This document shows, piece after piece, positions 4,628-37,823 of a stretch of 37,823 nucleotides of DNA (position 1 is the stretch's first letter; the number at the start of each line of letters is the position of its first letter). Made by a program: the position numbers and the translations under genes. The stretch spans positions 1 through 37,823 of the forward strand of contig JBBUAC010000023.1 of the NCBI GenBank assembly GCA_038061035.1, read 5' to 3'. Source of the stretch: Patescibacteria group bacterium. Its GTDB lineage: Bacteria > Patescibacteriota > Minisyncoccia > Phycocordibacterales > UBA9973. The notes beneath the pieces were generated by a model. That model did no database searches. It was not told where the DNA came from and was given only the letters and a program-made list of their open reading frames with translations.

Positions 4628-4674
4628 AAAATATAACTATTGACTTTGTATAGCCAATGTAATACACTCATATT

Positions 4675-4959
4675 ATGAATACAATAATGACGGTGCGAAT
4701 AGATAGTAAAATAAAGAGTGAGGCTCAAAAAACTTTTGCAAAAATGGGGTTGGATTTATCTTCTGCTGTTAAATTATTTATGAATCAATCTATCCTTGAA
4801 AAAGGACTTCCTTTCAAGCCTAGAACTGTAAACGGATATACAAAAGAGTTTGAAAACAGAATTCTTAATGAGGACAAACAATTGAGTCGTAATATAAAAA
4901 ATGGTAAATCAAAAGGACATAATTCTATAACAAATCTTTATGCTAAACTAATGAACTAA
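4675..4959 (+). CDS. dinJ: RelB/DinJ family antitoxin
   Basis: N-terminal RHH-like VRIDSKIKSEAQKTFAKMGLDLSSAVKLFMNQSILEKGLPF. The gene ends 3 nt before the toxin gene. Confidence 0.8.
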   Translation: MNTIMTVRIDSKIKSEAQKTFAKMGLDLSSAVKLFMNQSILEKGLPFKPRTVNGYTKEFENRILNEDKQLSRNIKNGKSKGHNSITNLYAKLMN

Positions 4960-4962
4960 AAT

Positions 4963-5232
4963 ATGCTTGTTGTTCACTATACATCATCATACAAACGTTC
5001 GTTTAAAAGATATACGCGTTCTGGAAAGTTTCCGTTAGAAAAACTTACAGAAGTTCTTAATTTTCTAAGAGGGGAAAAGCTATTGCCGAACAAATATCGA
5101 GACCATCAACTGAAAGGAAAGTTAGTAGAATTTAGAGAATGCCATATAGCCCCAGACATCTTACTTATTTATAAAATAGAGGGTAACTATCTAAAACTTA
5201 ATAATTTGGGATCACACGGTGAAACATTTTAA
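4963..5232 (+). CDS. yafQ: YafQ family mRNA interferase toxin
   Basis: KYRDHQLKGKLVEFRECHIAPDILLIYKIEGNYLKLNNLGSHGETF matches the YafQ C-terminal signature. Confidence 0.8.
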   Translation: MLVVHYTSSYKRSFKRYTRSGKFPLEKLTEVLNFLRGEKLLPNKYRDHQLKGKLVEFRECHIAPDILLIYKIEGNYLKLNNLGSHGETF

Positions 5233-5260
5233 ATATAAAGTTTTGTAATTCACAATATAT

Positions 5261-5354
5261 AAATAATTTTTAGTGTATAATATATATAGCTTTTAAATTA
5301 TTAATATATTAAAATATCTTTATTATAAAAAAATAATTTATGTCAAAAAGAAAT
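5261..5354 (+). repeat. Duplicated copy of the promoter and first codons of the gene at 6618
   Basis: Block AAATAATTTTTAGTGTATAATA (5261-5282) equals 6583-6604. Block TTTATGTCAAAAAGAAAT (5337-5354) equals 6615-6632. Confidence 0.8.
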
Positions 5355-5363
5355 CTTATCTTA

Positions 5364-6497
5364 TTAATTTTCCTCTAATTTTTTCAAGTACTTTTCTGCT
5401 TCCCTTATTTCTATTCCATTTACTATCCTTTCTAATCTCAAATTTTTTACGACTTGGATTCCTTTTAATTTATATTTTTGGGCAAAATAGCTCAACGTAT
5501 CCGAAACCTTATTATCACTAAGTTTCACTTCCACTATTTGATCCACAATATTTTCCTCATTATATACAGCAAAGTCAACTTCTTTATTTTCTTTAGTCTT
5601 TAAAAAACCGAGACTGTGCTTTTTCCCTGTTTTATCTGTTTTTATGACTGTGTGTTTATATAAAGCTAGGGCGACTAGATTCTCAAATCGTACCCCTTCA
5701 TTATTAATTACACCATAATCAAAAAAGTAAATCTTTGGTTCTTTTAAAATAGAGCGGTTTATTTTGTGAGTGTATGGTTTTATGATAAATACAATATATA
5801 ATGCTTCTAATATAGCTATATATTTCTTGACTGTAACACTAGAAATACCAACATCTCGTGCGATAGCACTATAAGAGATAGGGGAGCCGACTTTCGTTTT
5901 TAGTAAATCATAAATCAATCTCACAGTATTCACTTTATCTATTTCTTCAAAATCAAGCACGTCTTGTCTAAGCAGAATATCTATATATACACCTCTCCAA
6001 TGATCTGCTATATTTGTATCTTCTGCCAAAAGTGGTTCAGGAAAACCACTTCTTTCTAATAAGGTGTCTAATGACACTTCTTTATACACATTTTGTAATT
6101 CAGCTAAAGTAAAAGGCATCAAATGATGTAGTCTAAATCTACCAGCCATAGAATCTCCTGCATGTCTGTGTGCGTTCATACTAGCACTACCTGTAATCAA
6201 AATATGTAAATCGTCCTTTTTTGTATCAAAAATTCCCTTTAGGTGTGTTTTCCATTTAGGCATTTTATGGATTTCATCAAAAACAAGCAGATCTACATCT
6301 GGCAACCAGTTGTAATTTTTCATAACCTCTTTATGTTCAATATTATCGTAATTCAAATAAAGTGGATTCTTGTATGATTTCATTATTTCCTTGGCTAGCC
6401 ATGTCTTACCTACTTGTCTTGGACCCACAATAAATACCATTTTCTTTTTTAAATCAGACAATACGTTTTCTTTTACTTTTCTTTGTATATTTTTCAT
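5364..6497 (-). CDS. AAA+ ATPase, AAA_14 + DUF4143 (COG1373-like), paralog 2 (divergent subfamily)
   Basis: Walker A VGPRQVGKTWL, Walker B LLVFDEIHK, ITGSAS motif. Confidence 0.8.
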   Translation of the reverse strand: MKNIQRKVKENVLSDLKKKMVFIVGPRQVGKTWLAKEIMKSYKNPLYLNYDNIEHKEVMKNYNWLPDVDLLVFDEIHKMPKWKTHLKGIFDTKKDDLHILITGSASMNAHRHAGDSMAGRFRLHHLMPFTLAELQNVYKEVSLDTLLERSGFPEPLLAEDTNIADHWRGVYIDILLRQDVLDFEEIDKVNTVRLIYDLLKTKVGSPISYSAIARDVGISSVTVKKYIAILEALYIVFIIKPYTHKINRSILKEPKIYFFDYGVINNEGVRFENLVALALYKHTVIKTDKTGKKHSLGFLKTKENKEVDFAVYNEENIVDQIVEVKLSDNKVSDTLSYFAQKYKLKGIQVVKNLRLERIVNGIEIREAEKYLKKLEEN

Positions 6498-6582
6498 ATA
6501 TGACTATTTTATACGATATTTTAAAAAAGTCAAGACTATTTTAAAAAGCTCTTCCTTTTGGTCAAAGAGGTATTTTACTAGA

Positions 6583-6632
6583 AAATAATTTTTAGTGTAT
6601 AATAAATAATAACTTTTATGTCAAAAAGAAAT
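6583..6632 (+). repeat. Resident promoter and start region of gene 6618, partner of the 5261-5354 repeat
   Basis: Extended -10 TGTATAAT at 6596-6603 and ATGTCAAAAAGAAAT at 6618-6632. Both blocks are repeated upstream of the AAA ATPase cassette. Confidence 0.8.
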
Positions 6633-7988
6633 ACAATATTATTTATAATAGTTCTCATAATTCTAACCACTGGTGTTTTGTGGTATTTTTATTTTAACAA
6701 ATCTACAGACACAATAAATACAAACACAAAAACTGAAGGAGAAAATTTTGTATCTAATTTTTTTAATTTTGGAAAAATAAAAACAAAAGAAGTGGAGGAT
6801 GATTCAACGCCGGTAACCGATATTTCAGAAGAAAACGAAGAAACAACAATAGATATTCAAGAAGGGAATTTGTTTAAGATCTCAAGTATGCCCGTCGCTG
6901 GTTTTACTGTTTTTATGAAAGAAAGATTTAAAGAAATTGCAAATCCAAAAGAAATAGAACAAAACAACTTGAAGGCCAACTTGGAGGTCTTGCCTCCAAG
7001 TGAAAAAAAGGTTACTCCGATAGCTCCACTCACTGAGTTTGTTCCTGCTTTGAGGTATGTAGATAAAGCTACTGGTAATATTTATCAGACTTTTACAGAC
7101 CAAATAAATGAGCGTAAATTTTCTAATATGGAAATAGAAGGTATTTATGAAGCTTATTTTGGCAATAATGGAAACACAGTGATATCGCGATATCTTAAAA
7201 GTTCACCTCTTTTAAGTGGAGAAACAATTATTACTTATTCTGGTTCATTACCAAAAGAAATATTAGGAAATGATTCTGTAGTTGAAAATAATATAAGTGG
7301 ATCTTTTTTACCTGAAAATATAATAGATATGAGTATTTCTCCTAACACAACAAAAATGTTTTATTTATTTAATTGGAAAGAGGGCGTGGTTGGCACAACA
7401 GCTTTCTCTAATGGAGATAATAAGAAACAAATTTTTGATTCTAAATATACAGAGTGGCTCACACAATGGCCAAATGAAAATACAATTACAATTACCACAA
7501 AATCTGCGTCTTTTGTACCAGGATTTATGTATATAATTAATCCAAACAATTCGTCTATTGGTTTAAAAAGAATATTAGGTGGAATAAGGGGGCTGACAAC
7601 ACTTACAAGTCCAAATGGAAAGTTAGTTTTATATAGCAATGACACTGTTTCTTTAAATATCTACGATATAGAAACGGGAGAAGCTCAAACCTTGGGTGTA
7701 AAAAGTTTACCTGAAAAATGTGTTTGGGGAATATCTAGTGATGTTATTTATTGTGCTGTGCCTAAATTGATTGATAATTCTTTTTCATATCCAGATTCTT
7801 GGTATCGCGGGGAAGTGTCTTTTTCAGATGATATTTGGAGAATTGATGTCTCACAAGGAAATGCTAAAATAATATTTAATTCAGAAGAAGAAATAGATGG
7901 AGTTAGACTTATGTTAGACCAAAATGAAGACTTTTTATTTTTTATAAATAAAAAAGATTCTTATCTTTGGGGACTAACGTTGGAATAA
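6618..7988 (+). CDS. Membrane-anchored protein of unknown function (N-terminal TM, possibly a beta-propeller-like extracellular part)
   Basis: 456-aa ORF with TM segment ILFIIVLIILTTGVLWYFYF. I recognise no catalytic motif. Confidence 0.55.
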   Translation: MSKRNTILFIIVLIILTTGVLWYFYFNKSTDTINTNTKTEGENFVSNFFNFGKIKTKEVEDDSTPVTDISEENEETTIDIQEGNLFKISSMPVAGFTVFMKERFKEIANPKEIEQNNLKANLEVLPPSEKKVTPIAPLTEFVPALRYVDKATGNIYQTFTDQINERKFSNMEIEGIYEAYFGNNGNTVISRYLKSSPLLSGETIITYSGSLPKEILGNDSVVENNISGSFLPENIIDMSISPNTTKMFYLFNWKEGVVGTTAFSNGDNKKQIFDSKYTEWLTQWPNENTITITTKSASFVPGFMYIINPNNSSIGLKRILGGIRGLTTLTSPNGKLVLYSNDTVSLNIYDIETGEAQTLGVKSLPEKCVWGISSDVIYCAVPKLIDNSFSYPDSWYRGEVSFSDDIWRIDVSQGNAKIIFNSEEEIDGVRLMLDQNEDFLFFINKKDSYLWGLTLE

Positions 7989-8053: not shown

Positions 8054-8578
8054 TTAATTGTTTCCTATGTATTTAATTATTACCCTACGAGAACGACCGT
8101 ATCCTTCGGATTCGGTTTTTAAATCTGTAGCATTAGAAAGAAATTCATGTACTATTCTCCGTTCGTAAGCCGGCATTGGGTCAATCTCTATATTTGATTT
8201 AAAATAACGAGCTCGTTCCGCCATCATATGCACTATTGCATGAACATTTTCTATTCTTTTTTTCTGAAAACCATTCATATCAATAATAATATTTACGTTT
8301 TCGAATGGGATTTTGTTGTCTGTATTGGGAATTAATTCACTATCTTTGTTTTTTGAAAATATTTTATTTTCTATCATTCTGCGAGCAATGTGATTTAATG
8401 CGAAAAGAGCTTCACCTTCACGATTTAAGAAAAAATGTGGTTCTTTTGTTGTGATTTCAAACCATGTTGTTTTTATTTGATTTTCTTTTTCATCTTCTTT
8501 TACAAGAATCTCATCAAAAACTGTTGTGGTTTTTTCAATTAATTCCTTTATTAAGTTTTCTATTTCTTGTTTTTGCAT
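8054..8578 (-). CDS. khpB: Jag/KhpB RNA-binding protein (KH + R3H domains)
   Basis: C-terminal R3H-type MPAYERRIVHEFLS...SEGYGRSRRVII. Position is directly downstream of yidC. Confidence 0.75.
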   Translation of the reverse strand: MQKQEIENLIKELIEKTTTVFDEILVKEDEKENQIKTTWFEITTKEPHFFLNREGEALFALNHIARRMIENKIFSKNKDSELIPNTDNKIPFENVNIIIDMNGFQKKRIENVHAIVHMMAERARYFKSNIEIDPMPAYERRIVHEFLSNATDLKTESEGYGRSRRVIIKYIGNN

Positions 8579-23289: not shown

Positions 23290-24996
23290 TTATTCCTCAA
23301 ATAAATCAACCACGCTTTGTACTTCTTCAAAAGAAGTAATACCGTTTAATATTTTTACCACACCATCTTGTCTCATAGAAAGTATTCCTTGTGTTTTTGC
23401 CACTTTTTTTATTTCACGCTCACTTGGATTTTCTGATATTATTTTTTCAATAGCCTCGTCGGTTTTTATTGCTTCAAAAATTCCAATTCTGCCTTTATAT
23501 CCAGTCATATTACATTTTTCACAACCAATGTGCATAAATAATTTCAAAGAATTTTCCACAGTATTTTTATTTATATTGTATTTTTCAAGATTTTTTCCTT
23601 CTTCTTCCACTCCTTTTATAATTAATTTTATTACATCCATTTCTTTTTCATCTGCTTCTTTTTCTATTTTACAATATACGCAAAGCTTACGTACTAATCT
23701 TTGAGCGATAGACAATGACAATGCTGAGACCATTATTTTAGGATTAATACTAAGGTCTATTAATCGTGGTATAACACCAGCTGCGTTATTTGTGTGTAAT
23801 GTGGAAAAAACCAAGTGCCCAGTCAAAGCTGATTGTATCGCAACTTTTGCTGTTTCAGCGTCACGAATTTCTCCTACCATAATTACATCTGGGTCTTGAC
23901 GCAACGCAGCACGTAATCCATCCAGAAATCCATAATCTCTCCTCGCTTCTGTTTGGGTTTGTGTTATCCCTTCTAAACGATATTCAACAGGGTCTTCAAT
24001 GGTTATGATATTTATATCTGGAGAATATATTTTTTTTAGGAATGCATATAAAGTAGTAGTTTTTCCACTTCCTGTTGGTCCTGTTACTAAAATCAATCCA
24101 TTGGGTTTTGATATTTCTTCTTCTATAATAGAAAAAAGATATGGTTCAATTCCTATACTATTTAATTCTATTTGTATAGATTTTGGGTCCAATATTCTCA
24201 TAACAATAGATTCACCATATGATCCTGGAATAAGGGAAGTACGAATACTTATTTCATCACCACCTTCTGTAATACTAAAACGACCATCTTGAGGTTTTTT
24301 TGATGTTAATTTCATTCCAGAGAGAAGTTTTATTCGTGAATTGAGTAAATTATATGTATCAATATCAAAAGACTCCACATCTTGAAGAATTCCATCTAAT
24401 CTAAGTCGAAGTCTTCCTTTGTCCTTTTCTGGTTCTATGTGCACATCTGATGCATTTATGGCTATAGCTCCGGCCAATATTATTTCAAGTAAACGAGAAA
24501 TCTTATGAGCCTTTTTTTCCTCTAATGCTTTTTTAATAAGTTTTGAAATGTCTTGCATTTGATTTATGTTTTTTGCAGTATCGCGAAGTATTTCGGCTTC
24601 TATGTCGAGTCCTCCGACCTTTGAACTTTCTGCCATGGAAAGTTCTTTATATCTATCCCATACTTTTTCTATACTTCCCATAGATGTCATATAAAAAATA
24701 GGGTCTAAACTTTTTCTTTCCATTTCATCTTTTAATTTAGAAATTAATTCTGGGGTGGGAGAGCGAAGTGCAATATAAATATTTTTACCACTTAATTTAA
24801 AAGGAGCGATTTTCATATTACGCGCATCGTTTTCCGATATAGCTCGAAGTGCTTCATTGTCTATACCTAGATTATATAAATTTACATAAGGAAGATCGTA
24901 TTTTGATTCAGCTAAAAATTTCACCAATTGTTCTTCTTCCAACTTATGCAAATCGTCTAATTGTTTATTTTGTTTTTCTTCATCAAAGTCGGACAT
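23290..24996 (-). CDS. pilB: GspE/PilB family secretion/type IV pilus assembly ATPase
   Basis: Walker A GPTGSGKTTTLY, Asp box, Walker B VIMVGEIRD, His box LVFSTLHTN, and tetracysteine CVYC...CEKC. TATAAT lies 7 nt upstream of the ATG. Confidence 0.9.
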   Translation of the reverse strand: MSDFDEEKQNKQLDDLHKLEEEQLVKFLAESKYDLPYVNLYNLGIDNEALRAISENDARNMKIAPFKLSGKNIYIALRSPTPELISKLKDEMERKSLDPIFYMTSMGSIEKVWDRYKELSMAESSKVGGLDIEAEILRDTAKNINQMQDISKLIKKALEEKKAHKISRLLEIILAGAIAINASDVHIEPEKDKGRLRLRLDGILQDVESFDIDTYNLLNSRIKLLSGMKLTSKKPQDGRFSITEGGDEISIRTSLIPGSYGESIVMRILDPKSIQIELNSIGIEPYLFSIIEEEISKPNGLILVTGPTGSGKTTTLYAFLKKIYSPDINIITIEDPVEYRLEGITQTQTEARRDYGFLDGLRAALRQDPDVIMVGEIRDAETAKVAIQSALTGHLVFSTLHTNNAAGVIPRLIDLSINPKIMVSALSLSIAQRLVRKLCVYCKIEKEADEKEMDVIKLIIKGVEEEGKNLEKYNINKNTVENSLKLFMHIGCEKCNMTGYKGRIGIFEAIKTDEAIEKIISENPSEREIKKVAKTQGILSMRQDGVVKILNGITSFEEVQSVVDLFEE

Positions 24997-28203: not shown

Positions 28204-28668
28204 ATGGAAAATGAGATAAATAAAACAAATACTGTGCATCATACATTGGCACATTCATATATTGTTTATTTTTTAATATTAATTATAGGTATTTCTTTGG
28301 ATTTATTTTTTCCTATTAAGATTTTTCACAACTCTTTTGCATTACCTTTTGGTTTCATATTCTTATTACTTGCTACACTTATTGTTCTTTGGGCACAGAA
28401 AAGTTCTAGAGATTTATTAAAAAAAGAAAATGTTACAAAAGAACATTTTTGTCGAGGACCGTATTGCTATACTAGGACACCCACACATTGGGGCTTACTC
28501 TTCCTCGCACTTGGACTCGGTTTTATATTAAACGCCTTTTTTGTAATTGTTTTTAGTTTGTTTTCTTTTATTATTACAAAAATTACCCTTGTGAAAAAGC
28601 AAGAGAAATTTCTTGAAAATAAATACGGCGCTCCATATATGGAATATAAAAAAACAGTGAGATTTTAA
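28204..28668 (+). CDS. Membrane methyltransferase of the ICMT/PEMT-like family
   Basis: Multi-TM protein with GPYCYTRTPTHWGLLFLALG, which resembles the GPY..RHP.Y motif. Confidence 0.65.
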   Translation: MENEINKTNTVHHTLAHSYIVYFLILIIGISLDLFFPIKIFHNSFALPFGFIFLLLATLIVLWAQKSSRDLLKKENVTKEHFCRGPYCYTRTPTHWGLLFLALGLGFILNAFFVIVFSLFSFIITKITLVKKQEKFLENKYGAPYMEYKKTVRF

Positions 28669-29932: not shown

Positions 29933-30067
29933 ATGCTAGCAGTAAATAAACCACTTGTATATTTATTGATTATCACAATTATAGGTTCATTTTTTGCTTT
30001 TAGAATTATCACAAAAGCATACAATGTATATGATGATAATTATTATTTAGAAACTTATGGTAAATAA
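29933..30067 (+). CDS. Possible 44-aa single-TM peptide
   Basis: My own translation gives MLAVNKPLVYLLIITIIGSFFAFRIITKAYNVYDDNYYLETYGK. It overlaps the trmH-like start. Confidence 0.3.
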   Translation: MLAVNKPLVYLLIITIIGSFFAFRIITKAYNVYDDNYYLETYGK

Positions 30068-30545
30068 GTTTTTAAAAGAAAATATTGTAATACTTCATAA
30101 TATACGAAGTATAGAAAATGTTGGTGCAATGTTTCGTACTTGTGACGCTGTAGGTATAGATAAAATATATTTATCTGGATACACTCCGACACCACTTGAT
30201 AGATTTGGCAGAAAAAGAAAAGATTTAGCAAAGTCTGCACTAGGGGCAGAGGAATTTGTGCCATGGGAGCAGAAGAAAAATTTTTTTTCTTTAATAAAAA
30301 AACTTAAAATACAGGGTTTTAATATTATAGGGATAGAGCAAGATAAAAATTCTGTGAATTATAAAAAATTAAATTTTAAATTAAAAGATAAAAATGTTTT
30401 TATTGTTGGGTCAGAAGTTACAGGTATATCAAAAAATATTTTAACAAAGTGTAGTGTTATAGTTGAGATACCAATGAAAGGTAAAAAAGAATCTCTTAAT
30501 GTATCTGTAGCACTGGGTGTAGTTTTATTTTCTAGTATAATATAA
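30057..30545 (+). CDS. SpoU/TrmH family RNA 2'-O-methyltransferase
   Basis: NIRSIENVGAMFRTCDAVG, GSEVTGIS, IPMKGKKESLNVSVALGVVLF (SPOUT knot motifs). Confidence 0.85.
   Translation: MVNKFLKENIVILHNIRSIENVGAMFRTCDAVGIDKIYLSGYTPTPLDRFGRKRKDLAKSALGAEEFVPWEQKKNFFSLIKKLKIQGFNIIGIEQDKNSVNYKKLNFKLKDKNVFIVGSEVTGISKNILTKCSVIVEIPMKGKKESLNVSVALGVVLFSSII
30487..30536 (+). repeat. 50-bp direct repeat, left copy (3' end of the trmH-like gene)
   Basis: AAGAATCTCTTAATGTATCTGTAGCACTGGGTGTAGTTTTATTTTCTAGT is identical to 37663-37712. Confidence 0.95.
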
Positions 30546-30550
30546 AGATT

Positions 30551-33436
30551 ATGTTTCTTTTGTTAAAAAAGACATTGAAATTTGTAATTATAATTATTAT
30601 AGTCATTTTCACCTTTTCTGGATCAATTTTTATATCAGCATTTTTTGCACAGTTTATTATCAATATGCAAAATGTGGATATTACACTCGGTTCACTTGAG
30701 AGTTCAGATACTGAATTCACAGTTTCTTTTGCTCCATCTTCTGGTGTAAATAATGAGTCATATCGTATCACTGCATTTTCTAATTGTAATCAAAATGAAT
30801 ATGATGATTTTGGAAATTGTATTGATCTTGTTCCTAATTTATGCCCATATCTTTCTCTCCAGCCAAAGAACGAAGAGATAACAGAAATTGGTTTTACTCA
30901 AAACTTATCTGATTTTCAAGCCACGGGTCAATTAAATAATCCTGATGATGAAATTGATATATGGAATCTCTCAATTAAATCCCCGTGTTTTGAAGGAGAA
31001 TGCCCCACCGATTATGATGAATTTCAAAATGGTGCTCCGTTGCCACAAATACTTAAAAACCAAACCTTTAAATGCGTTCTTTCTGTAGAAACAAGTGACA
31101 TTCCCGAACTTGTTAAAAATTATTTAGAAAAAAATATTATTTATGCAGATGATTTTATAAATTCTCTTGAGGTGTCGGCAATATTTACAGGAGAACTTCC
31201 AGGTTGTATCACTGATTGTTTTTCAAATGTTTTATTTTTGCCTGGGATGATGGGGTCAAAACTTTATGAAGCAGGACTTGATTGTGATGATGTATTTGTA
31301 GGAAATGAATGTGGAGATAAAACTATATGGGTTTCTATATTTGATAATTTACAAAAAAAGCTTTCGCTTGATGCACTAGGAAAAAGTATTAACAACCTTT
31401 TTACTAAAAATGATACCCAATATGACGGGGGAAATGAAATGGGTATTATAGACGAGATAGGTGTTTTTAATATTTATAAATCTTTTATTTCTGATTTAAA
31501 GAAGTGGAAAGAAGAGGAAAAAATAATAGAGGACTATGCTTTTATTCCGTATGACTGGAGATTGTCGCTAGAAGATATTATTTCAAATGGAAAAGTTTTA
31601 GAAGAAAATCTTTCATATACAAATTCTCAAAATTTTGAAGAATCATTTATTTTAAAAAAATTAGAAGAACTTCAAAAAACTTCCAAATCAGGCAAGGTCA
31701 CTATTCTAGCTCACTCTAATGGTGGTTTAGTGACTAAAGCATTGATGCAAAAATTAAAAGATACAAACAATCCTCTCTATGAAAAAATAGACAAAATTAT
31801 TTTTGTAGCTGTGCCTCAAGTTGGAACACCAGAAGCATTTGTGAGTTTGCTTCATGGAGTAAAAGTTGGCAAGGGATTTGTAATGAATGCTGACATGGCT
31901 CGCAACTTGGCTGAAAATATGCCGACAATTTATAATTTACTTCCTTCAGAGAATTATTTTACCAATCTTCAAATTCCATTTACTTTAGATAAACTAATAT
32001 CGTTTCAAGATAAAGAAATATTTAAAAAAGAAATATCTAAATATGATTTAATGATAGATAATTATTCAGAACTTAAAGCATATATTTTAGGAAAAGAAGA
32101 AAGAGACAAACCATCATTTGAAGATACAAGGAATCCAAATATTGGTAACTCTTTTTTATATGATCAAGCACAAGCCGTGCATCAAATATTGGATAATTGG
32201 CAACCATCATCAGAAACTAAAGTTATACAAATAGCTGGTTGGGGAGAGGAAACTATAGCAAGCATAGAATACAAAGAATATATTACTAGAGAATGTAAGG
32301 ATGGTATTTGCGGACCAAGTTCAAAAATTTCTTATAAAATTAAAAAAGTCATTGACGGCGACGGAACTGTTGTTGTCCCCAGTACTCTTTTTATGTCTCC
32401 ATCAGAAAACATTGAGAGATGGTGGGTGGATTTGAAAGAAATTAATCGTGGTAAATTAAGAAAATATAATCATAAAGACATTTTAGAAATCCCAAACTTA
32501 AGAGATTTTATTAAATCTAAAACAAAAGATGAAGTTTTGTTTATTGATTCAGAAAATATTGTTTTAAACAATAATTTAAATCTTAAATCAAGTAAATCTC
32601 GTCTCCACTTTCAACTCCACTCACCGTTATACCTTGGAATAATTGATAATGAAGGAAGATATACAGGTATTGACCCAATTACAAAAGAAATAAAGGAAGA
32701 AATTCCAGATGTTACATATCAACAAATAGGCGAAGTACAATTTCTTTCTATTTCATATGGATTAGAATATACATTAAAACTTCAAGGTTATACTGAAGGT
32801 AGTTTTTCTTTAGATATAGACAAACAAGAAGGGAATGAAATAACAGAGTCTGCTTCATTTCAAGGTATTCCATCAGACTCTAATACTTTAGCTACTTTAG
32901 CAATAGATACAAATTTCAAAGTAGGAGATTCTGTATTAAATATTGATAATAATGGAGATAAAACAACTGACATTACTTTAATAGCTATATTAAATGGGAC
33001 AACATTATACGAAGAGTCAAAAGAATTATCATCTAAATCAATAATTTATTCTGGAAATTCCCAAGAAAATCCATCTGCGTCCGGAGCAGTAAATATATTT
33101 ATGATTGCACAAAATAATAAAACAGATAATATTGTGTATGAAGAAAATATAGAGCAAATAAAAAATCAAATAGAGAAAAAAGAAGAAGTTTCTGAAATAA
33201 ATATAGTAAATAATAAAATTAAAAAGAATAATTTTAAACCAAAGATAGAAGTTGCAAAAAATATAGAAGATAATTTAAAAACACCACAAAAAACAGAAGT
33301 AGAATCAAAAAATGAAGTTTTTCCACTTCAAGCTTCAGTGGTAGAATTTAACACAAATAATTCAGCAAAATTGCCAATAATTATTGTTTCTTTGTTTTTA
33401 GTCGGTATTATTATTTTTAAATTTATTAAGGTATAA
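30551..33436 (+). CDS. Large cell-surface protein with an LCAT/PGAP1-like alpha/beta-hydrolase (lipase/acyltransferase) domain
   Basis: N-terminal and C-terminal TM segments and a Cys-rich N-terminal region. FLPGMMGSKLYE, nucleophile elbow ILAHSNGGL, DGDGTVVVP, and a later NHKDIL as candidate His. Confidence 0.6.
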   Translation: MFLLLKKTLKFVIIIIIVIFTFSGSIFISAFFAQFIINMQNVDITLGSLESSDTEFTVSFAPSSGVNNESYRITAFSNCNQNEYDDFGNCIDLVPNLCPYLSLQPKNEEITEIGFTQNLSDFQATGQLNNPDDEIDIWNLSIKSPCFEGECPTDYDEFQNGAPLPQILKNQTFKCVLSVETSDIPELVKNYLEKNIIYADDFINSLEVSAIFTGELPGCITDCFSNVLFLPGMMGSKLYEAGLDCDDVFVGNECGDKTIWVSIFDNLQKKLSLDALGKSINNLFTKNDTQYDGGNEMGIIDEIGVFNIYKSFISDLKKWKEEEKIIEDYAFIPYDWRLSLEDIISNGKVLEENLSYTNSQNFEESFILKKLEELQKTSKSGKVTILAHSNGGLVTKALMQKLKDTNNPLYEKIDKIIFVAVPQVGTPEAFVSLLHGVKVGKGFVMNADMARNLAENMPTIYNLLPSENYFTNLQIPFTLDKLISFQDKEIFKKEISKYDLMIDNYSELKAYILGKEERDKPSFEDTRNPNIGNSFLYDQAQAVHQILDNWQPSSETKVIQIAGWGEETIASIEYKEYITRECKDGICGPSSKISYKIKKVIDGDGTVVVPSTLFMSPSENIERWWVDLKEINRGKLRKYNHKDILEIPNLRDFIKSKTKDEVLFIDSENIVLNNNLNLKSSKSRLHFQLHSPLYLGIIDNEGRYTGIDPITKEIKEEIPDVTYQQIGEVQFLSISYGLEYTLKLQGYTEGSFSLDIDKQEGNEITESASFQGIPSDSNTLATLAIDTNFKVGDSVLNIDNNGDKTTDITLIAILNGTTLYEESKELSSKSIIYSGNSQENPSASGAVNIFMIAQNNKTDNIVYEENIEQIKNQIEKKEEVSEINIVNNKIKKNNFKPKIEVAKNIEDNLKTPQKTEVESKNEVFPLQASVVEFNTNNSAKLPIIIVSLFLVGIIIFKFIKV

Positions 33437-33445
33437 TATATTTAT

Positions 33446-33859
33446 ATGAATAAAATTATTGAGTGGTTTACAAGAAAGAAATTAATTATAGTAAGTATAT
33501 TATCATTGATATTATTATTTTTAATTGAAGTAGATAATGTAACTCATTTTTTATGTAAATTAAAAAATTATAAGTGTTATGATTTATTTGATTTTATTTT
33601 TTTGATACTTCTTTTTTTTGTATTATTATCAATACCAATTTTATTAACTTTTATTTTTAAAAATAAAGATATTTTTGATTTTTGGAAAAAAACTTTATTT
33701 ATCTATTTTTTTATTTATCTATTTTTTATTATATTAGTTCCTTGGAATTGGGGAGATGTATATTTACCAATATATAAAGGAACTGTTGCATTAGCTTTAA
33801 ATATTTTATTTTTAATTTTCTCTATTATTTTTATTATTTATAAATCCATCAAAAAATAA
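33446..33859 (+). CDS. Polytopic membrane protein of unknown function
   Basis: 137 aa with about 4 hydrophobic segments. TATAAT lies 8 nt upstream of the ATG. Confidence 0.5.
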   Translation: MNKIIEWFTRKKLIIVSILSLILLFLIEVDNVTHFLCKLKNYKCYDLFDFIFLILLFFVLLSIPILLTFIFKNKDIFDFWKKTLFIYFFIYLFFIILVPWNWGDVYLPIYKGTVALALNILFLIFSIIFIIYKSIKK

Positions 33860-33887
33860 GTCATTTTTGTGCTAGAATAGGATTTAT

Positions 33888-36800
33888 ATGAAAGATTACT
33901 TACAAGAAATTCAAAAATATTTTTATGATGAAAACAGCTCTGAACATTCATATCGGACTTCTTTTGAAAATTATTTAAAAGAAATTTTTCCAAAAGAAAA
34001 AGGTTATTTTACACAACAAGACCAAAGAGCTATAAATGGAAATAAACCTGATTTTATTATATTTAAAAATAAAGTTCCCTTACTTTATATAGAAGTTAAA
34101 AAAGTTGGGGAAGATTTAGATAAAATTGAAAAATCTGATCAAGCTGATAGATACTTCGGTTACAGCAACTTGATAATTAGCGATTACGTTAATTTTAGGT
34201 TTTTTAGAAATGGGCAGAAATACAATGAAGAAATTTCTCTCGGAGATATAGATAAAAACGGAAGATATATAAAAATAAAAAATGAAAACTCTGATTATTT
34301 AATAAAAACAATTTTAGATTTTGTTTCTTCTAATAAAGAACCAATTAAGAGTGGAGTACATCTTGCAAAAATAATGGGAGGAATAGCAAAGCGTGTTAGG
34401 TCTAATGTATTAGAAATGCTTTTTTCTAAATCAGAGCGTTATATAGAATTGTTTAAAATAAGGGATGTTGTGAAAGAGAATTTGATTTCAAGTCTTGACG
34501 ATAATTCTTTTGCAGATATGTATGCGCAGACTTTAGTTTATGGTCTTTTTTCAGCTCGATATAATGATACAACACTTAATAATTTTTCCCGTATTGAAGC
34601 TCGGGAACTTATACCAAAAACAAATCCATTTTTAAGATCTTTCTTTGACCATATTGCAGGAAATACTTTTCCAGAAAGACTACGATTTATTGTTGATGAA
34701 TTATGTGAAGTTTTTACTCATGCCCATGTGCATAATCTTATGCATGAGTATTTTAAAAAAGAAAGTTTGTTTGGAGAAGTATATGAAAGTCCTGATCCAG
34801 TTATTCATTTTTATGAAGATTTCTTGCGTGAATATGATGTAAAAAAGAAAATGGAAATGGGAGTTTTCTACACACCTCGTCCAGTAGTACAATTTATTGT
34901 TCGCGCGGTGGATAGTATTTTAAAAAGTGAATTTAATCTTTTAAAAGGTTTGGCTGATAAAACCAAAATACAAATAGAAAGAAAAGAAATAGATAAAAAG
35001 GGAAAAACAATTAAGATTCAAAAAGAATATCACAAAGTTCAAATTCTTGATGTGGCTACAGGCACAGGAACATTCTTAAATGAAGTCATTAAACATATTT
35101 ATAAAGATTTTATTGGTCAAGAGGGTCATTGGCCATCATATGTAGAAGATAATCTTTTGCCAAGATTGCATGGTTTTGAGCTGATGATGGCTTCTTATAC
35201 TATTGCTCATTTGAAATTAGGTATGACACTTCAGGACACAAAGGCTGGGGAATTAAAAACTCGTTTGGGGGTATATCTTACAAATACACTTGAAGCTTCG
35301 GTGGACTATGCAAATCAAGGTACTTTATTTGGTTTAATGGATAGTATCGCTCAAGAAAGTAAAAGTGCTTCAAAGATAAAATCAGAATACCCCATTATGT
35401 GTGTAATTGGGAATCCACCATATAGTGGTGTTTCTCAAAATAAAATTTATACCGACAATAATGTTTATAAAGTAGAGATAGGAGGCAAACAAAAACTTCA
35501 AGAAAGAAAACATTGGTTGGATGATGATTATGTTAAATTTATTCGCTTTGCTGAAAGTCTAATAGAGAAAAATGAGGAGGGAATTATTGGAATGATTACT
35601 GCTCATGGATATATTGATAACCCTACATTTCGGGGAATGCGATGGCACTTGAGAAACACTTTTGACAAAATTTACATTCTAGATTTACATGGAAATAGTA
35701 ATAAGGGGGAAATAAGCCCTGATGGATCAAAAGACGGTAATATTTTTGATATTAAAACCGGTGTAGCTATAATTTTAGGAATTAAAAATTCTAACATTAA
35801 AAATAAAAAATTGGCACAAGTTTTAAAAGCAGATTTCTATGGAATTCGTGCAGAAAAATTTAAAAAATTGGATATTTCAAATATTGATAAAATAGATTGG
35901 ACAAAACTACCAGAAAATACAGATTTATGGGTTCTTGAAGGAGTGGGTAAAACTGAATATAAAAAAGGGTTTTCTGTCGCTGAGCTGTTTCCCAAAAATA
36001 CAACAGGAATTGTAACTGGAATAGATAAATTATCCATTTTTTACACAAAGGATGAATTAGAAAAAATAACGAAATCTATCCTAAATTCAAATAATCCCTA
36101 TGTAGAATTTAATATTAAGGATGGAAGAAAATATAAAAAAGAAGAAAGATTAAAAGAATTAAAAGAAGCATCAGAAGATAAACCGACTTTAATTTCTTAT
36201 AGGTCTTTTGATGATAGGTGGATGTATTATACAAAAGGATCAGAAGTTTGGATTAATTCTCCAAGATTTGAGATAATGCAAAATTTTATAAATAAAGATA
36301 ACTTAGGATTAATTGTTTGTAAGCAAGTAAAAAGTGGAGATTCATGGCAACATTTAAGTATCTCTAAAAATATAATTGAATCGTCTTTCATTTCTAATAA
36401 AACTGGAGAAATAAATTCTAGTTTACCTCTGTATTTATATACAGAACAAGGAGAAAAGATTCCAAACTTAAACAAAGAAATTTGCGAGAAAATAAATGAG
36501 GAAGCAGGAGAAACAACGCCAGAAAATATTCTGGATTATATATACGCAGTTTTACATTCACCTAAATATCGAGAAACCTATAAAGAATTTTTGAAAATAG
36601 ATTTTCCTCGTGTGCCATATCCGACTGACAAAAAAGAATTTGAAAGATTAATTAAACTTGGAGAAAAATTAAGAAATCTGCATTTAATGATTGACCCAGA
36701 TTGTGAAAGATTTATTACAAAATATTCTGTAGCGGGTGGTAATTTTGTGGAAAAAGTAAAATACGAAAATGGTAATGTTTATATAAATACTACTCAAAAT

Positions 36801-36977
36801 TTTAAAGGTGTTCCAGAAATTGTTTGGAATTTTTATATTGGAGGTTATCAACCTACACAAAAATATCTAAAAGATAGAAAAGGAAAACAACTAAATAGTG
36901 ATGAAATAGAACATTATCAGAAAATAATTAAAGTTTTATTTGAGACTAATAAGATAATGAAGGAGATAGATAAATAA
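33888..36977 (+). CDS. Single-chain Type IIG/IIL (MmeI-like) restriction-modification enzyme
   Basis: N-terminal PD-ExK candidate KPDFIIF...YIEVKK. MTase motif I ILDVATGTGTFL, motif IV GNPPYSG. The C-terminal target-recognition/Type ISP-like region includes YIYAVLHSPKYRETYKEFLKIDFPRVPYP. Confidence 0.8.
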   Translation: MKDYLQEIQKYFYDENSSEHSYRTSFENYLKEIFPKEKGYFTQQDQRAINGNKPDFIIFKNKVPLLYIEVKKVGEDLDKIEKSDQADRYFGYSNLIISDYVNFRFFRNGQKYNEEISLGDIDKNGRYIKIKNENSDYLIKTILDFVSSNKEPIKSGVHLAKIMGGIAKRVRSNVLEMLFSKSERYIELFKIRDVVKENLISSLDDNSFADMYAQTLVYGLFSARYNDTTLNNFSRIEARELIPKTNPFLRSFFDHIAGNTFPERLRFIVDELCEVFTHAHVHNLMHEYFKKESLFGEVYESPDPVIHFYEDFLREYDVKKKMEMGVFYTPRPVVQFIVRAVDSILKSEFNLLKGLADKTKIQIERKEIDKKGKTIKIQKEYHKVQILDVATGTGTFLNEVIKHIYKDFIGQEGHWPSYVEDNLLPRLHGFELMMASYTIAHLKLGMTLQDTKAGELKTRLGVYLTNTLEASVDYANQGTLFGLMDSIAQESKSASKIKSEYPIMCVIGNPPYSGVSQNKIYTDNNVYKVEIGGKQKLQERKHWLDDDYVKFIRFAESLIEKNEEGIIGMITAHGYIDNPTFRGMRWHLRNTFDKIYILDLHGNSNKGEISPDGSKDGNIFDIKTGVAIILGIKNSNIKNKKLAQVLKADFYGIRAEKFKKLDISNIDKIDWTKLPENTDLWVLEGVGKTEYKKGFSVAELFPKNTTGIVTGIDKLSIFYTKDELEKITKSILNSNNPYVEFNIKDGRKYKKEERLKELKEASEDKPTLISYRSFDDRWMYYTKGSEVWINSPRFEIMQNFINKDNLGLIVCKQVKSGDSWQHLSISKNIIESSFISNKTGEINSSLPLYLYTEQGEKIPNLNKEICEKINEEAGETTPENILDYIYAVLHSPKYRETYKEFLKIDFPRVPYPTDKKEFERLIKLGEKLRNLHLMIDPDCERFITKYSVAGGNFVEKVKYENGNVYINTTQNFKGVPEIVWNFYIGGYQPTQKYLKDRKGKQLNSDEIEHYQKIIKVLFETNKIMKEIDK

Positions 36978-37020
36978 TATTTTTAGTTGATTAGTTATTT
37001 TTTTAGTATAATATACACAT

Positions 37021-37242
37021 ATGACAAGAATGGCATTTGATTCAATTTTTATAAGAAATTCAGATGGTACATTAGAACCTCGCCAAGTTGTTCGAATTGG
37101 TGGTGTCACAATGGGACCAGGTGTTAAATTTGGAGAAGGAGTATCTTTTGGCGGAATTGATCTTACAAAGTTTTTAGGAAGAGCTTTTGAAGTTCAAACT
37201 GATAATGGAGTTCTTGTAATAACTGGTATTTATGGACAATAA
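37021..37242 (+). CDS. Small hypothetical protein (73 aa, Gly/Val-rich)
   Basis: TATAAT at 37007-37012 lies 8 nt upstream of the ATG. It overlaps the next ORF by 11 nt. Confidence 0.45.
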   Translation: MTRMAFDSIFIRNSDGTLEPRQVVRIGGVTMGPGVKFGEGVSFGGIDLTKFLGRAFEVQTDNGVLVITGIYGQ

Positions 37243-37585
37243 AAATAAACAATCAGAAAATATAATAAAAATAGCGGATCCTCAATTTGAAGGAAAAGAG
37301 ATATTACAGCATGGGATAAGGCAAATTTTAGGTCAGTTAAGAGATATAAAAAAGACATTTAATTATATATTAACTTCTGTAATTGTTGTTTTAGCTTTAG
37401 GATTTATAACTCTTTTATTTATGGTTGCGACCATGATGATTGATAGCTGGAATTTTAATTCTACTATTTATAAAGAGAACAAAGTTTTAGAAGTAAATTC
37501 TAAAATAATTCAGAATAATTCTAATGAACAACAGGATATAAATAAACGTTTAGATAAAATAGAATTTTTATTAAAAATACGATAA
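37232..37585 (+). CDS. Small membrane protein (117 aa, one TM plus a C-terminal coiled-coil-like part)
   Basis: TM segment ILTSVIVVLALGFITLLFMVATMMI. It appears translationally coupled to the 73-aa ORF. Confidence 0.45.
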   Translation: MDNKNKQSENIIKIADPQFEGKEILQHGIRQILGQLRDIKKTFNYILTSVIVVLALGFITLLFMVATMMIDSWNFNSTIYKENKVLEVNSKIIQNNSNEQQDINKRLDKIEFLLKIR

Positions 37586-37662: not shown

Positions 37663-37712
37663 AAGAATCTCTTAATGTATCTGTAGCACTGGGTGTAGTT
37701 TTATTTTCTAGT
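37663..37712 (+). repeat. 50-bp direct repeat, right copy (orphan 3' end of the trmH-like gene)
   Basis: Identical to 30487-30536, and continues TTA TAA in the same frame. Confidence 0.95.
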
Positions 37713-37720
37713 TTATAAAA

Positions 37721-37752
37721 AACTTACAGAAATACAAACTTTTCTGTAAGTT
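37721..37752 (+). terminator. Intrinsic terminator following the orphan trmH 3' end
   Basis: 12-bp stem AACTTACAGAAA / TTTCTGTAAGTT with an 8-nt loop, then a T-rich tail. Confidence 0.75.
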
Positions 37753-37768
37753 TTGTAATTTAAAACTT

Positions 37769-37823
37769 TTACCAATAAATTTCCCCTGTGCCAACTGGTG
37801 GAAGTGGTTTTATATAAGGTCCG
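37769..37823 (-). CDS. 3' end of an unidentified minus-strand gene that continues beyond the window
   Basis: The minus strand reads ...GPYIKPLPPVGTGEIYW* with a TAA at 37769-37771. Confidence 0.3.
   Translation of the reverse strand, partial: GPYIKPLPPVGTGEIYW

Follow-up and report, generated by a model that had tools for sequence, protein, structure and literature searches.

The gene at 30551-33436 (P0001) encodes a predicted surface-anchored hydrolase of the LCAT/LPLA2 family, and together with a small membrane-protein gene directly behind it forms a two-gene cassette that duplicates and inserts as one unit. We consider it probable that the two products, a Sec-exported hydrolase and its membrane partner, act on the lipids of a host cell, thereby causing damage, supplying lipid, or both. 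The window analyzed here is a 37,823-nt stretch of a Patescibacteria contig (JBBUAC010000023.1); all coordinates refer to its forward strand, on which the insert described below and its borders are read. A preliminary description had proposed a lipase or acyltransferase on a mobile-looking segment; the four-helix partner, a second copy of the cassette on another contig (C14) and the very large Paceibacteria family around the enzyme come in addition to it.

The open reading frame runs exactly over the coordinates first given for it and specifies 961 amino acids. Its product matches the Pfam LCAT family (PF02450) with 53.2 bits (E=3.7e-14; cut-off 21), residues 330-610 aligning on HMM positions 88-354, and a six-frame search of the genome with the same HMM gave 56.1 bits. 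The ordered motifs PGMMGSKL (231-238), AHSNGG (387-392) and DGDGTV (602-607), which had led to an assignment as an LCAT/PDAT/PGAP1-type enzyme, are all present. The LCAT part of this assignment stands and the PGAP1 part falls: PF07819 scored 17.0 bits against a curated threshold of 24.3, aligning over the elbow region (367-428) only. DUF900, DUF676 and palmitoyl thioesterase were likewise weaker matches that LCAT clearly outscored, and a search of NCBIfam gave no meaningful match. When the PDB was searched by sequence, the protein itself matched nothing, and the family profile found only Tle4 (E=0.0035; motifs FxPGxMG and HSxGG) and, marginally, the bacterial lipase 5ah0; no match in either search tied the enzyme directly to LPLA2 or LCAT. 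An exhaustive homologue search recovered 2,892 cluster representatives at E<=1e-3. By sequence, then, the enzyme is a member of a very large Paceibacteria family and not an oddity of this genome. Literature searches found no description of an LCAT-like enzyme family in Patescibacteria, or of the partner.

The link to LPLA2 and LCAT came from the predicted structure. The AlphaFold model of the core is confident (pLDDT >90), and its top eight Foldseek matches were all LPLA2 or LCAT (E=2e-11), as expected of the alpha/beta-hydrolase match that the preliminary description had put at stake. TM-scores normalized on the target were 0.70-0.71 for LPLA2 (4x95, 4x97) and 0.57-0.67 for LCAT, and the alignments spanned about 470 columns for targets of 375-378 residues, with a sequence identity of just 14-16%. 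The closest structures and the HMM family thus point the same way, to the animal enzymes lysosomal phospholipase A2 (LPLA2/PLA2G15; 4x90, 4x95, 4x97) and lecithin:cholesterol acyltransferase (LCAT; 4xwg, 5txf, 6mvd), with which the enzyme shares the order PGxxGS, YDWR, HSxGG, DGDGTV and a distal His. Taken together, the profile match and the modeled structure establish membership of the LCAT/LPLA2 family and its fold.

Within the catalytic alpha/beta-hydrolase core and its cap (residues 218-665; 31202-32545), the oxyanion-type motif FLPGMMGS (229-236) is followed by PYDWR (333-337) and the HSNGG elbow, and FxPG, YDWR and HSxGG are invariant among relatives. Three residues are conserved in every ungapped sequence among 243 relatives: Ser389 (243/243; codon 31715-31717), Asp604 (238/238; 32360-32362) and His641 (239/239; 32471-32473). 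No other His that follows Asp604 is invariant. The neighboring D602 is D, E or N among relatives. In the model, Ser389 follows the strand 383-388 and sits in the turn before helix 391-404, Asp604 follows 586-603, and His641 follows 621-627. Because each of them combines this conservation with a place after the expected alpha/beta-hydrolase strand, we take Ser389, Asp604 and His641, the first of them as putative nucleophile, the others as acid and base, to be the candidate catalytic triad. The Ser-Asp spacing is about 215 residues, compared with about 160 in LCAT and LPLA2, which points to a larger cap in the present enzyme. The estimates of dN/dS, 0.26 for the enzyme as a whole, 0.20 for its core and 0.48 for the partner, show that both genes are under purifying selection.

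Around this core, the predicted architecture is that of an exported protein tethered to the membrane. Hydropathy singles out two segments, residues 1-37 and 936-961. The first (30551-30661) is a signal peptide or signal anchor that begins MFLLLKKTLK, continues in a long hydrophobic run modeled as helix 2-27 and has a possible cleavage site between ISA and FF; homologues carry classical Sec signal peptides. A Cys-rich beta-sandwich module comes next (residues 34-212; 30650-31186), delimited by sequence, conservation, the model and the Pfam domains of relatives, and 10 of the 12 cysteines of the enzyme fall within the first 254 residues of the whole protein, so that the N-terminal hydrophobic segment and the cysteine-rich region described earlier are both found. 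This module varies within the family: beta-helix, DUF5018 or other modules stand there in relatives, many of which carry beta-helix modules of carbohydrate-binding type. C-terminal of the core lies a second beta-sandwich (residues 680-820, modeled at 683-819; 32588-33010), which is conserved along with the core, has a pLDDT >90 and carries the motifs LHxxLHSPL, GRYTG and EEIP; homologue matches end at about 810-825. It leads into a tether of about 115 residues (826-940; 33026-33370), low in complexity, rich in Lys, Glu and Asn, poorly conserved and modeled as disordered (826-941; pLDDT 25-50), and the protein closes with a transmembrane helix (941-960) and the basic tail KFIKV before the stop codon (residues 941-961 and stop, 33371-33436), an anchor also supported by hydropathy and by homologues. 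The long beta-rich region and the C-terminal anchor that had been read from the letters are thus borne out by the model. A conserved FPLQASV motif precedes the anchor by about 20 residues, and relatives combine classical signal peptides with alternative C-terminal anchoring modules. Extracytoplasmic display agrees with the N-terminal signal, with the pairing of the cysteines and with an anchor that ends in a basic tail, and the architecture predicted is that of an exported, extracytoplasmic and membrane-tethered enzyme. The extra conserved C-terminal beta-sandwich, the swappable N-terminal modules, the disordered tether and the anchor distinguish it from LPLA2 and LCAT, as do its bacterial origin, its predicted surface display and its pairing with a four-helix membrane protein.

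The partner gene (P0122; 33446-33859) begins 9 nt after the stop codon of the enzyme and encodes a 137-aa integral membrane protein, confidently modeled with four helices (pLDDT 93.5). Partners in the family are about 135 residues long; in the one encoded here, no loop outside the membrane exceeds 15 residues, and the protein is almost wholly membrane-embedded. The gene directly follows that of the enzyme on the same strand in 65 of 68 assessable loci, with a median gap of 13 nt, and two or three tandem copies are present in several of them (L009, L023, L042, L048). In a sample of 401 genomes from the phylum, five of the six with a full enzyme core had it and no other genome did; orphan partner genes were absent from all of the approximately 395 sampled genomes without the enzyme, and no extra copy turned up elsewhere in this genome. 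We saw no fusion of the two among 245 proteins and 80 loci. These comparisons show that the two genes are closely coupled for translation and strictly coupled in their distribution among genomes. No known protein was found to resemble the partner in sequence or fold: it has no Pfam family, and its best match in a PDB structure search had an E of 5.7.

The cassette stands in a recent 7.2-kb insert bracketed by two perfect 50-bp direct repeats. The left copy (30487-30536) is formed by the last codons of a SpoU/TrmH gene (30057-30545; PF00588), and the right copy (37663-37712), as comparison with congeners indicates, is the displaced 3' end of that gene. Both congeners lack the insert at the same SpoU...RuvA site, which is empty in them, and the segment that had looked mobile at first sight is therefore well supported as such. 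A -10-like box, TAGTATAAT, read from the sequence at 30533-30541, ends 9 nt before the ATG of the enzyme and suggests that its mRNA has a very short leader or none. An identical box stands before the enzyme gene on C14 and before a 73-aa open reading frame at 37021; a scan for consensus promoters and terminators gave no more matches than shuffled sequence. Just beyond the right repeat, an inverted repeat, CTTACAGAAA...TTTCTGTAAG, followed by a run of T (37723-37754), is likely the original SpoU terminator, which the scan passed over because its stem is AT-rich.

Next to the cassette lies the restriction-modification enzyme already noted as its neighbor (33888-36977), a single chain of 1029 aa with HSDR_N nuclease, N6_Mtase and Type ISP C-terminal specificity domains in Pfam, and thus Type IIG/ISP-like. 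The last cargo of the insert is formed by two small overlapping open reading frames of 73 and 117 aa (37021-37585) with no Pfam match. As none of these three has a homologue in 80 related enzyme loci, they fall outside the conserved unit, and by this comparison the restriction-modification enzyme is co-cargo of the insert, unlinked to the cassette in other genomes. The presence of the cassette on one insert with such an enzyme agrees equally well with a nutritional trait and with an accessory or antagonistic one. A PilB-type ATPase is encoded outside the insert at 23290-24996; no secretion-system genes flank the cassette within the window.

The second copy of the two-gene cassette, on C14, has 73% identity to the first and is preceded by an orphan 3' fragment of SpoU. 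The unit copied comprises exactly the enzyme and partner genes plus 54 nt upstream. Synonymous divergence between the paralogues is 0.21 over the last ~140 aligned codons, which cover the tether and the anchor, compared with 0.90 in the core. A cysteine pair just after the PGxxGS motif (C245/C254), where the lid disulfide of LCAT presumably lies, falls within a 14-aa insertion absent from the paralogue. We rejected the notion that the C14 copy is a co-binned strain variant, since homology ends exactly at the ends of the cassette and the flanks are unrelated. Also rejected was a core Paceibacteria gene that merely happens to lie beside a restriction-modification insert: the congeners and most of the sampled genomes of the same class are without the cassette, and the empty SpoU...RuvA site speaks against this reading as well. 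These comparisons show that enzyme and partner genes duplicate and insert as one cassette. Its distribution is patchy, being absent from both congeners and from most same-class genomes sampled; consequently, it cannot be a general or essential route of lipid acquisition in these bacteria.

A large share of bacterial diversity belongs to the Patescibacteria (CPR), which are generally unable to make membrane lipids. The premise that the present organism is a lipid auxotroph held up in our searches, for each of which positive controls worked: FabF/H (ketoacyl synthase), PlsX, PlsY, PlsC, FakB and CdsA all went undetected, as did patatin, PLD and GDSL lipase, in a genome of 461 kb that is 86% complete and in which gene absences are accordingly probable rather than certain. 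CPR cells have been found enriched in lysolipids and were proposed to take lipids from their neighbors (PMC7242380).

Members of the LPLA2/LCAT family are secreted enzymes that work at lipid interfaces through an acyl-serine intermediate, for which either water or a lipid can be the acceptor. On the reading that we favor, the enzyme would be held outside the single membrane of the cell by its C-terminal helix, and the flexible tether of ~115 residues, together with the variable N-terminal beta module, would let the core reach the membrane of a neighboring host cell. Ser389 would attack a glycerolipid at an acyl ester bond and so give an acyl-enzyme, from which the acyl group could pass to water, a phospholipase A reaction yielding lysolipid and fatty acid, or to a lipid hydroxyl, an LCAT-type transacylation that would need neither ATP nor CoA nor ACP. 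That host membranes are the target of such phospholipase A or acyltransferase chemistry is an inference. Sitting in the membrane of the producer, the four-helix partner would cooperate with the enzyme at the interface; it might serve the products as a docking or acceptor site, or might shield the producer's bilayer from the tethered enzyme. The outcome would be damage to the host membrane, lipid supply for an organism unable to make lipids, or both. A similar idea has been put forward for the CPR predator Vampirococcus lugosii, where a secreted phospholipase, Vamp_34_196, was proposed to disrupt host membranes and supply lipids (PMC8080830). That bacterium also lacks phospholipid synthesis; it belongs to a different CPR lineage, the likeness being one of biological idea, and the passage on its phospholipase describes no partner gene, tether or cassette.

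Several of the observations above could also be read as those of an antagonistic effector and its immunity protein, in which an exported lipase lyses host or competitor membranes, the partner protects the producer and any nutrition is incidental, much as Tli proteins counter the Tle phospholipases of type VI secretion (T6SS). We regard this as a serious possibility, if a somewhat unlikely one. A small conserved gene closely adjoins the lipase gene as in Tle-Tli pairs, the tandem partner copies resemble arrays of immunity genes, the cassette is patchily distributed and rides beside a defense gene, and of the two proteins the partner is the faster to evolve. Moreover, the only relative of the family profile among PDB sequences besides the marginal 5ah0 is a T6SS effector: 4R1D is Tle4 (TplE) of Pseudomonas aeruginosa, an antibacterial lipase encoded beside its cognate protective gene Tli4 (PMC4832377). 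This match is weak, however, and limited to the FxPGxMG and HSxGGL motifs, and where Tle4 is injected, the enzyme here is predicted to be Sec-exported and anchored in its own membrane, with no dedicated delivery system linked to it. Tli4 is a soluble periplasmic protein, and known Tli proteins in general are soluble periplasmic proteins or lipoproteins, unlike a four-helix protein with such short loops. With true polymorphic toxins, immunity genes often occur as orphans, whereas here no partner gene turned up in the sampled genomes without the enzyme, and the arrays seen lie beside it.

It is also conceivable, if most unlikely, that the enzyme works at the surface as a carboxylesterase or lipase on substrates other than membranes (triacylglycerols, waxes or polyesters, acylated polysaccharides, acyl groups of lipoproteins or lipoteichoic acids), with a partner that merely serves as dock or as export helper in the manner of a lipase-specific foldase. 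The alpha/beta-hydrolase fold is versatile enough for this, the weaker Pfam matches are to generic families, 5ah0 is a bacterial lipase, and the carbohydrate-binding-type modules of many relatives would suit such a role. Yet the best folds are those of the phospholipid-acting LPLA2 and LCAT, matched at ~70% TM over the whole target and thus beyond the generic core, the LCAT HMM scores clearly above the generic families, and no pathway to use free fatty acids (FakB, PlsX, PlsY, PlsC) was detected. In the LipA-Lif/LipB operons of Pseudomonas and Burkholderia, a lipase gene is followed, in the same order as here, by one for a membrane-anchored helper that the enzyme requires; Lif-type foldases, however, combine a single N-terminal transmembrane helix with a large chaperone domain outside the cytoplasm, an arrangement that the 137-aa partner, almost wholly in the membrane, does not share. 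That the protein is no enzyme but an adhesin or structural component of the surface, with a hydrolase-like fold merely retained, is barely credible: the large multidomain surface architecture and variable N-terminal modules would be in keeping with this, but the three candidate catalytic residues and the oxyanion-type motifs are kept in every ungapped sequence, and the core is under purifying selection.

The reading that we favor, in which hydrolase and partner act on host lipids, has a bolder form. The cassette might be a self-contained, horizontally transferable device for harvesting lipids, the enzyme stripping acyl chains or lysolipids from a host membrane, the partner receiving them, inserting them into the producer's membrane or gating the enzyme, and transacylation replacing the undetected PlsX, PlsY and PlsC steps. 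We think this distinctly unlikely as it stands; if true, energy-free transacylation would account for the reported richness of CPR membranes in lysolipids, and Patescibacteria would have in the pair their first identified machinery for lipid acquisition, one that spreads as a two-gene mobile unit.

New at this locus are the mobile cassette, its duplication and the empty sites in congeners: two genes move and duplicate together, they can be gained by an organism without detected lipid synthesis or other lipases of the families searched, and close relatives manage without them. This mobility, the gain and the cassette-free relatives indicate a role that is accessory, host-specific or antagonistic, and not universal. 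The family offers clonable candidates for a surface enzyme of phospholipase A/acyltransferase type and its dedicated membrane partner, and the pair can be tested as a candidate means by which such bacteria may take, or attack, the membrane lipids of other cells.

The LCAT-like enzyme (P0001) has the fold of LCAT and lysosomal phospholipase A2 (LPLA2), is exported and membrane-tethered, and carries a conserved candidate catalytic triad. Its gene is an uninterrupted ORF of 961 codons (30551-33436, forward strand). The motifs listed in the preliminary description were found in the order given (PGMMGSKL at residues 231-238, AHSNGG at 387-392 and DGDGTV at 602-607), as was the cysteine-rich N-terminal region, which holds ten of the twelve cysteines before residue 255. 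In Kyte-Doolittle windows only residues 1-37 and 936-961 were strongly hydrophobic, in agreement with the proposed terminal TM segments. The suggested Pfam LCAT family matched (PF02450, E=3.7e-14, 53.2 bits vs a cut-off of 21); PGAP1, also suggested, reached 17 bits and fell below its cut-off of 24.3. DUF7379 and DUF900 exceeded their own Pfam cut-offs, DUF676 did not, and neither an NCBIfam search nor a direct sequence search of the PDB with the enzyme returned anything useful. Directly after the PGMMGS motif lies a 14-residue insertion with C245 and C254 (residues 245-258, window 31283-31324), missing from the second, C14 copy and most relatives; the lid-loop disulfide of LCAT lies in what may be the corresponding region.

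An AlphaFold2 model was built from a 70-sequence alignment (A1; mean pLDDT 78.5, pTM 0.69, residues 205-820 mostly >90). It begins with a signal or anchor helix (residues 2-27) and a beta-sandwich (34-212), followed by an alpha/beta-hydrolase core with an inserted cap (226-665), a second beta-sandwich (683-819) that corresponds to the beta-rich region expected behind the hydrolase block, a disordered segment (826-941) and a TM helix (941-960), the anticipated C-terminal anchor. Foldseek against the PDB placed the model among the alpha/beta hydrolases, as had been proposed: LPLA2 ranked at the top (4x97, 4x92, 4x90, 4x95; E ~1e-11, TM 0.63-0.71 on target) and LCAT next (4xx1, 5txf, 6mvd, 4xwg, 5bv7; TM 0.57-0.67), and the other matches were of low TM and to beta modules. 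All 243 aligned family members have S389, and every ungapped sequence has D604 (238/238) and H641 (239/239). Since position 602 is D, E or N among relatives, D604 is the acid candidate. Each residue occupies its canonical place in the model: the candidate nucleophile S389 between strand 383-388 and helix 391-404, the candidate acid D604 after strand 586-603, and H641 as the first residue of helix 641-646, past strand 621-627 and a loop. F229, P231, G232, D335-W336-R337, H388, G391 and G392 are likewise invariant in the family.

The family is large. A word-indexed search, which scored 8,000 candidates only, found at least 478 relatives; when representatives clustered at 50% identity were searched exhaustively, 2,892 clusters reached E<=1e-3 and 1,501 reached E<=1e-30, almost all of them aligned to residues ~215-820 of the query. 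Relatives are encoded in at least 550 GTDB species genomes, with labels that include Nomura-, Zambryski-, Yonath-, Kaiser-, Lloyd-, Giovannoni- and Moranbacteria/Paceibacterota. The conserved unit is a ~600-residue core (hydrolase plus C-terminal beta-sandwich). All relatives inspected have Sec signal peptide-like N-termini, and the N-terminal module varies (beta-helix PF13229, DUF5018, LVIVD and others). The C-termini fall into three classes: a TM anchor with a basic tail, a beta module ending in ...KVDY, and a PxKF-like module. In the anchor class, P0001 included, the helix is often preceded by an (I/L)PLxAS motif. As (I/L)PLxAS(V), it lies ~12-20 residues before the anchor helix and basic tail (window 33323-33436, residues 925-961) and is common to P0007, P0009, P0010, P0016, P0018, P0056 and other relatives with a C-terminal TM anchor. 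It looks like a protein-sorting signal; the region matched none of the NCBIfam sorting-signal models, and a sortase TLxTC motif was not found in the source genome. One other protein of this genome (C8:3101-3805) has a loosely similar end, PLFGAT...TM...KK.

Nine nucleotides past the enzyme stop codon begins a second ORF of 137 codons (33446-33859), referred to as the partner. A homologue (43% identity, E=2e-21) lies behind the gene for P0006, a 56%-identical enzyme. When all ORFs of 80 related loci were examined by iterative HMM search, 65 of 68 assessable loci proved to have the partner behind the enzyme gene in the same orientation, at a median gap of 13 nt. Two or three tandem paralogous copies follow the enzyme in L009, L023/L024, L042, L048, L039, L067 and L070, and genome G298 has three copies at a contig start. 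The partner alignment (A2) displays a basic N-terminus and four hydrophobic helices; the first external loop carries two paired cysteines, the cytoplasmic loop an almost invariant Trp (W80), and the C-terminal helix reads LYSxISLxxIxYKSxKK. This topology agrees with the positive-inside rule. In the AlphaFold2 model (pLDDT 93.5, pTM 0.82) the four helices form a bundle, and a short beta-hairpin lies on the external side. The partner matched no Pfam family and no structural relative in the PDB (best E=5.7), and no fusion with the enzyme occurs among the sequences and loci compared. The G+C minimum of the window (33001-34000, 19.8% vs ~29%) spans the disordered tether of the enzyme and the partner gene.

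We examined the distribution of the pair across 401 genomes sampled evenly from the phylum. Only six of them, the source genome included, have the full enzyme core (2/5 genomes of the same order, 3/~17 of the same class), and it is absent from both complete genomes of the same genus. The partner profile matched five of the six, and none of the ~395 genomes without a full core had an orphan partner. This pattern indicates that the pair is accessory and strictly co-inherited. The coupling of enzyme and four-helix membrane protein is strict, and their cassette is mobile.

The segment bearing the cassette, previously described as mobile-looking, is indeed a 7.2-kb insertion flanked by perfect 50-bp direct repeats (30487-30536 and 37663-37712), with sites empty in the two congeners. 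The left repeat is the 3' end of a SpoU/TrmH gene, the cassette is the first cargo behind it, and behind the right repeat come an inverted repeat and a run of T. The last 55 nt of the window (37769-37823) are also the start of contig C30 (positions 1-55), a join that stems from the assembly k-mer; beyond it RuvA (minus strand), rpsT and a thioredoxin-like gene form the right flank. In both congeners these three genes follow SpoU at a distance of 1-2 kb, and LCAT, partner and RM genes are all missing from the interval, which marks the segment as an insertion peculiar to the source genome. The restriction-modification (RM) gene (33888-36977) and two small ORFs (73 and 117 aa) were unlinked to the cassette in all 80 related loci; they are co-cargo and not functional partners. 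A TAGTATAAT box occurs at 30533-30541 and 37004-37012, and also upstream of the C14 copy. The start codons of the LCAT-like gene, the 73-aa ORF and the C14 paralogue each follow it at 8-10 nt, a position that suggests leaderless or very short-leader transcripts and no Shine-Dalgarno.

The source genome (461 kb, 48 contigs, 86% complete) has a second enzyme gene at C14:8105-10942 (945 aa, 73% identity to P0001), followed by a partner (52.6% identity). C14:7682-10995 and window 30498-33859 share 77% nucleotide identity, and the homology spans 54 nt before the ATG to the partner stop codon, with unrelated flanks. Homology confined in this way identifies the second copy as a true duplication of the two-gene unit and not as a strain variant. 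Upstream of the second cassette, just after rpsR, lies an orphan fragment (C14:10947-10995) that codes for the final 17 amino acids of SpoU (SLNVSVALGVVLFSSII*), although the rest of a SpoU gene is missing there. It shares 92% identity with the 50-bp repeat of the islet, and a few bases in front of it are similar, too, to what stands left of the right repeat in the window. The fragment suggests that integration homology resembling the 3' end of SpoU travels with the cassette itself. Such a stretch could permit Campbell-type integration at spoU and so account for an islet that has no recombinase. L018 belongs to a relative with a 71%-identical SpoU, and here too the LCAT pair follows SpoU immediately; in this locus (3867-7241) the LCAT-like gene is split into ORFs of 785 and 297 aa, either by a frameshift or stop (a possible pseudogene) or by sequencing error, and the partner is intact.

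Between the paralogues, dN/dS was 0.26 for the enzyme, 0.20 for its core and 0.48 for the partner. These values indicate that both copies are maintained, and purifying selection acts on both genes. Over the last ~140 codons of the enzyme (window ~33000-33436, C14 ~8105-8530) dS was 0.21 vs 0.90 in the core, with the final 35 residues nearly identical, and the partner gene downstream has diverged again (dS 0.75). This pattern suggests a short tract of gene conversion that covers tether and anchor.

In six-frame HMM searches of the 86%-complete source genome, with every profile positive in control genomes, ketoacyl synthase, PlsX, PlsY, PlsC-type acyltransferase, DegV/FakB and CdsA were not detected, which upholds the earlier premise of a lipid auxotroph; patatin, PLD and GDSL lipase were not found either. 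Joint absence by chance at this completeness is unlikely. A 154-aa membrane protein (28204-28668, forward strand) scores marginally as PEMT, a phospholipid methyltransferase (26 bits, cut-off 25). In a genome without detectable lipid synthesis, an enzyme that modifies lipids is notable.

We propose that the enzyme would perform acyl-enzyme chemistry on glycerolipids in another cell's membrane, which it would reach through its ~115-residue tether and variable N-terminal module; the outcome would be hydrolysis (phospholipase A) or transacylation, and the partner, at the producer's membrane, may be a dock or acceptor, or a shield. The main alternative, that the enzyme is an effector and the partner an immunity protein, is favoured by the way the genes are arranged, by partner copies in tandem, by the accessory distribution and by a weak sequence link to Tle4 (4R1D). 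It is weakened by the lack of orphan partners in the genomes sampled, by the membrane-embedded nature of the partner and by the tethering of the enzyme to its own producer, and we consider it rather unlikely. It and the lipid-acting role with a dock, acceptor or shield are not mutually exclusive.

The enzyme family is already known and auto-annotated: relatives carry public annotations that extend from 'alpha/beta hydrolase' to 'lecithin-cholesterol acyltransferase', so automatic annotation already recognises the class. In the literature on Patescibacteria/CPR lipases and lipid acquisition we found no published description of the family or the partner. Specific to this locus are the insertion, demonstrated by the empty sites of the congeners, a duplication of the exact two-gene unit with an orphan SpoU fragment beside it, the negative orphan-partner test, an N-terminal Cys-rich beta-sandwich instead of a beta-helix, and a very small genome in which none of the lipid pathways tested was detected. 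CPR membranes are lysolipid-rich in field data, for which a host origin has been proposed, with phospholipase A as a possible source (PMC7242380). A secreted phospholipase has been proposed to obtain lipids from the host in Vampirococcus (PMC8080830), and a 2024 review describes the mechanisms of lipid uptake and breakdown in Patescibacteria as unidentified (PMC11665869). Since none of the tested routes that would turn free fatty acids into phospholipids was detected, the present organism probably must take up (lyso)lipids as such.
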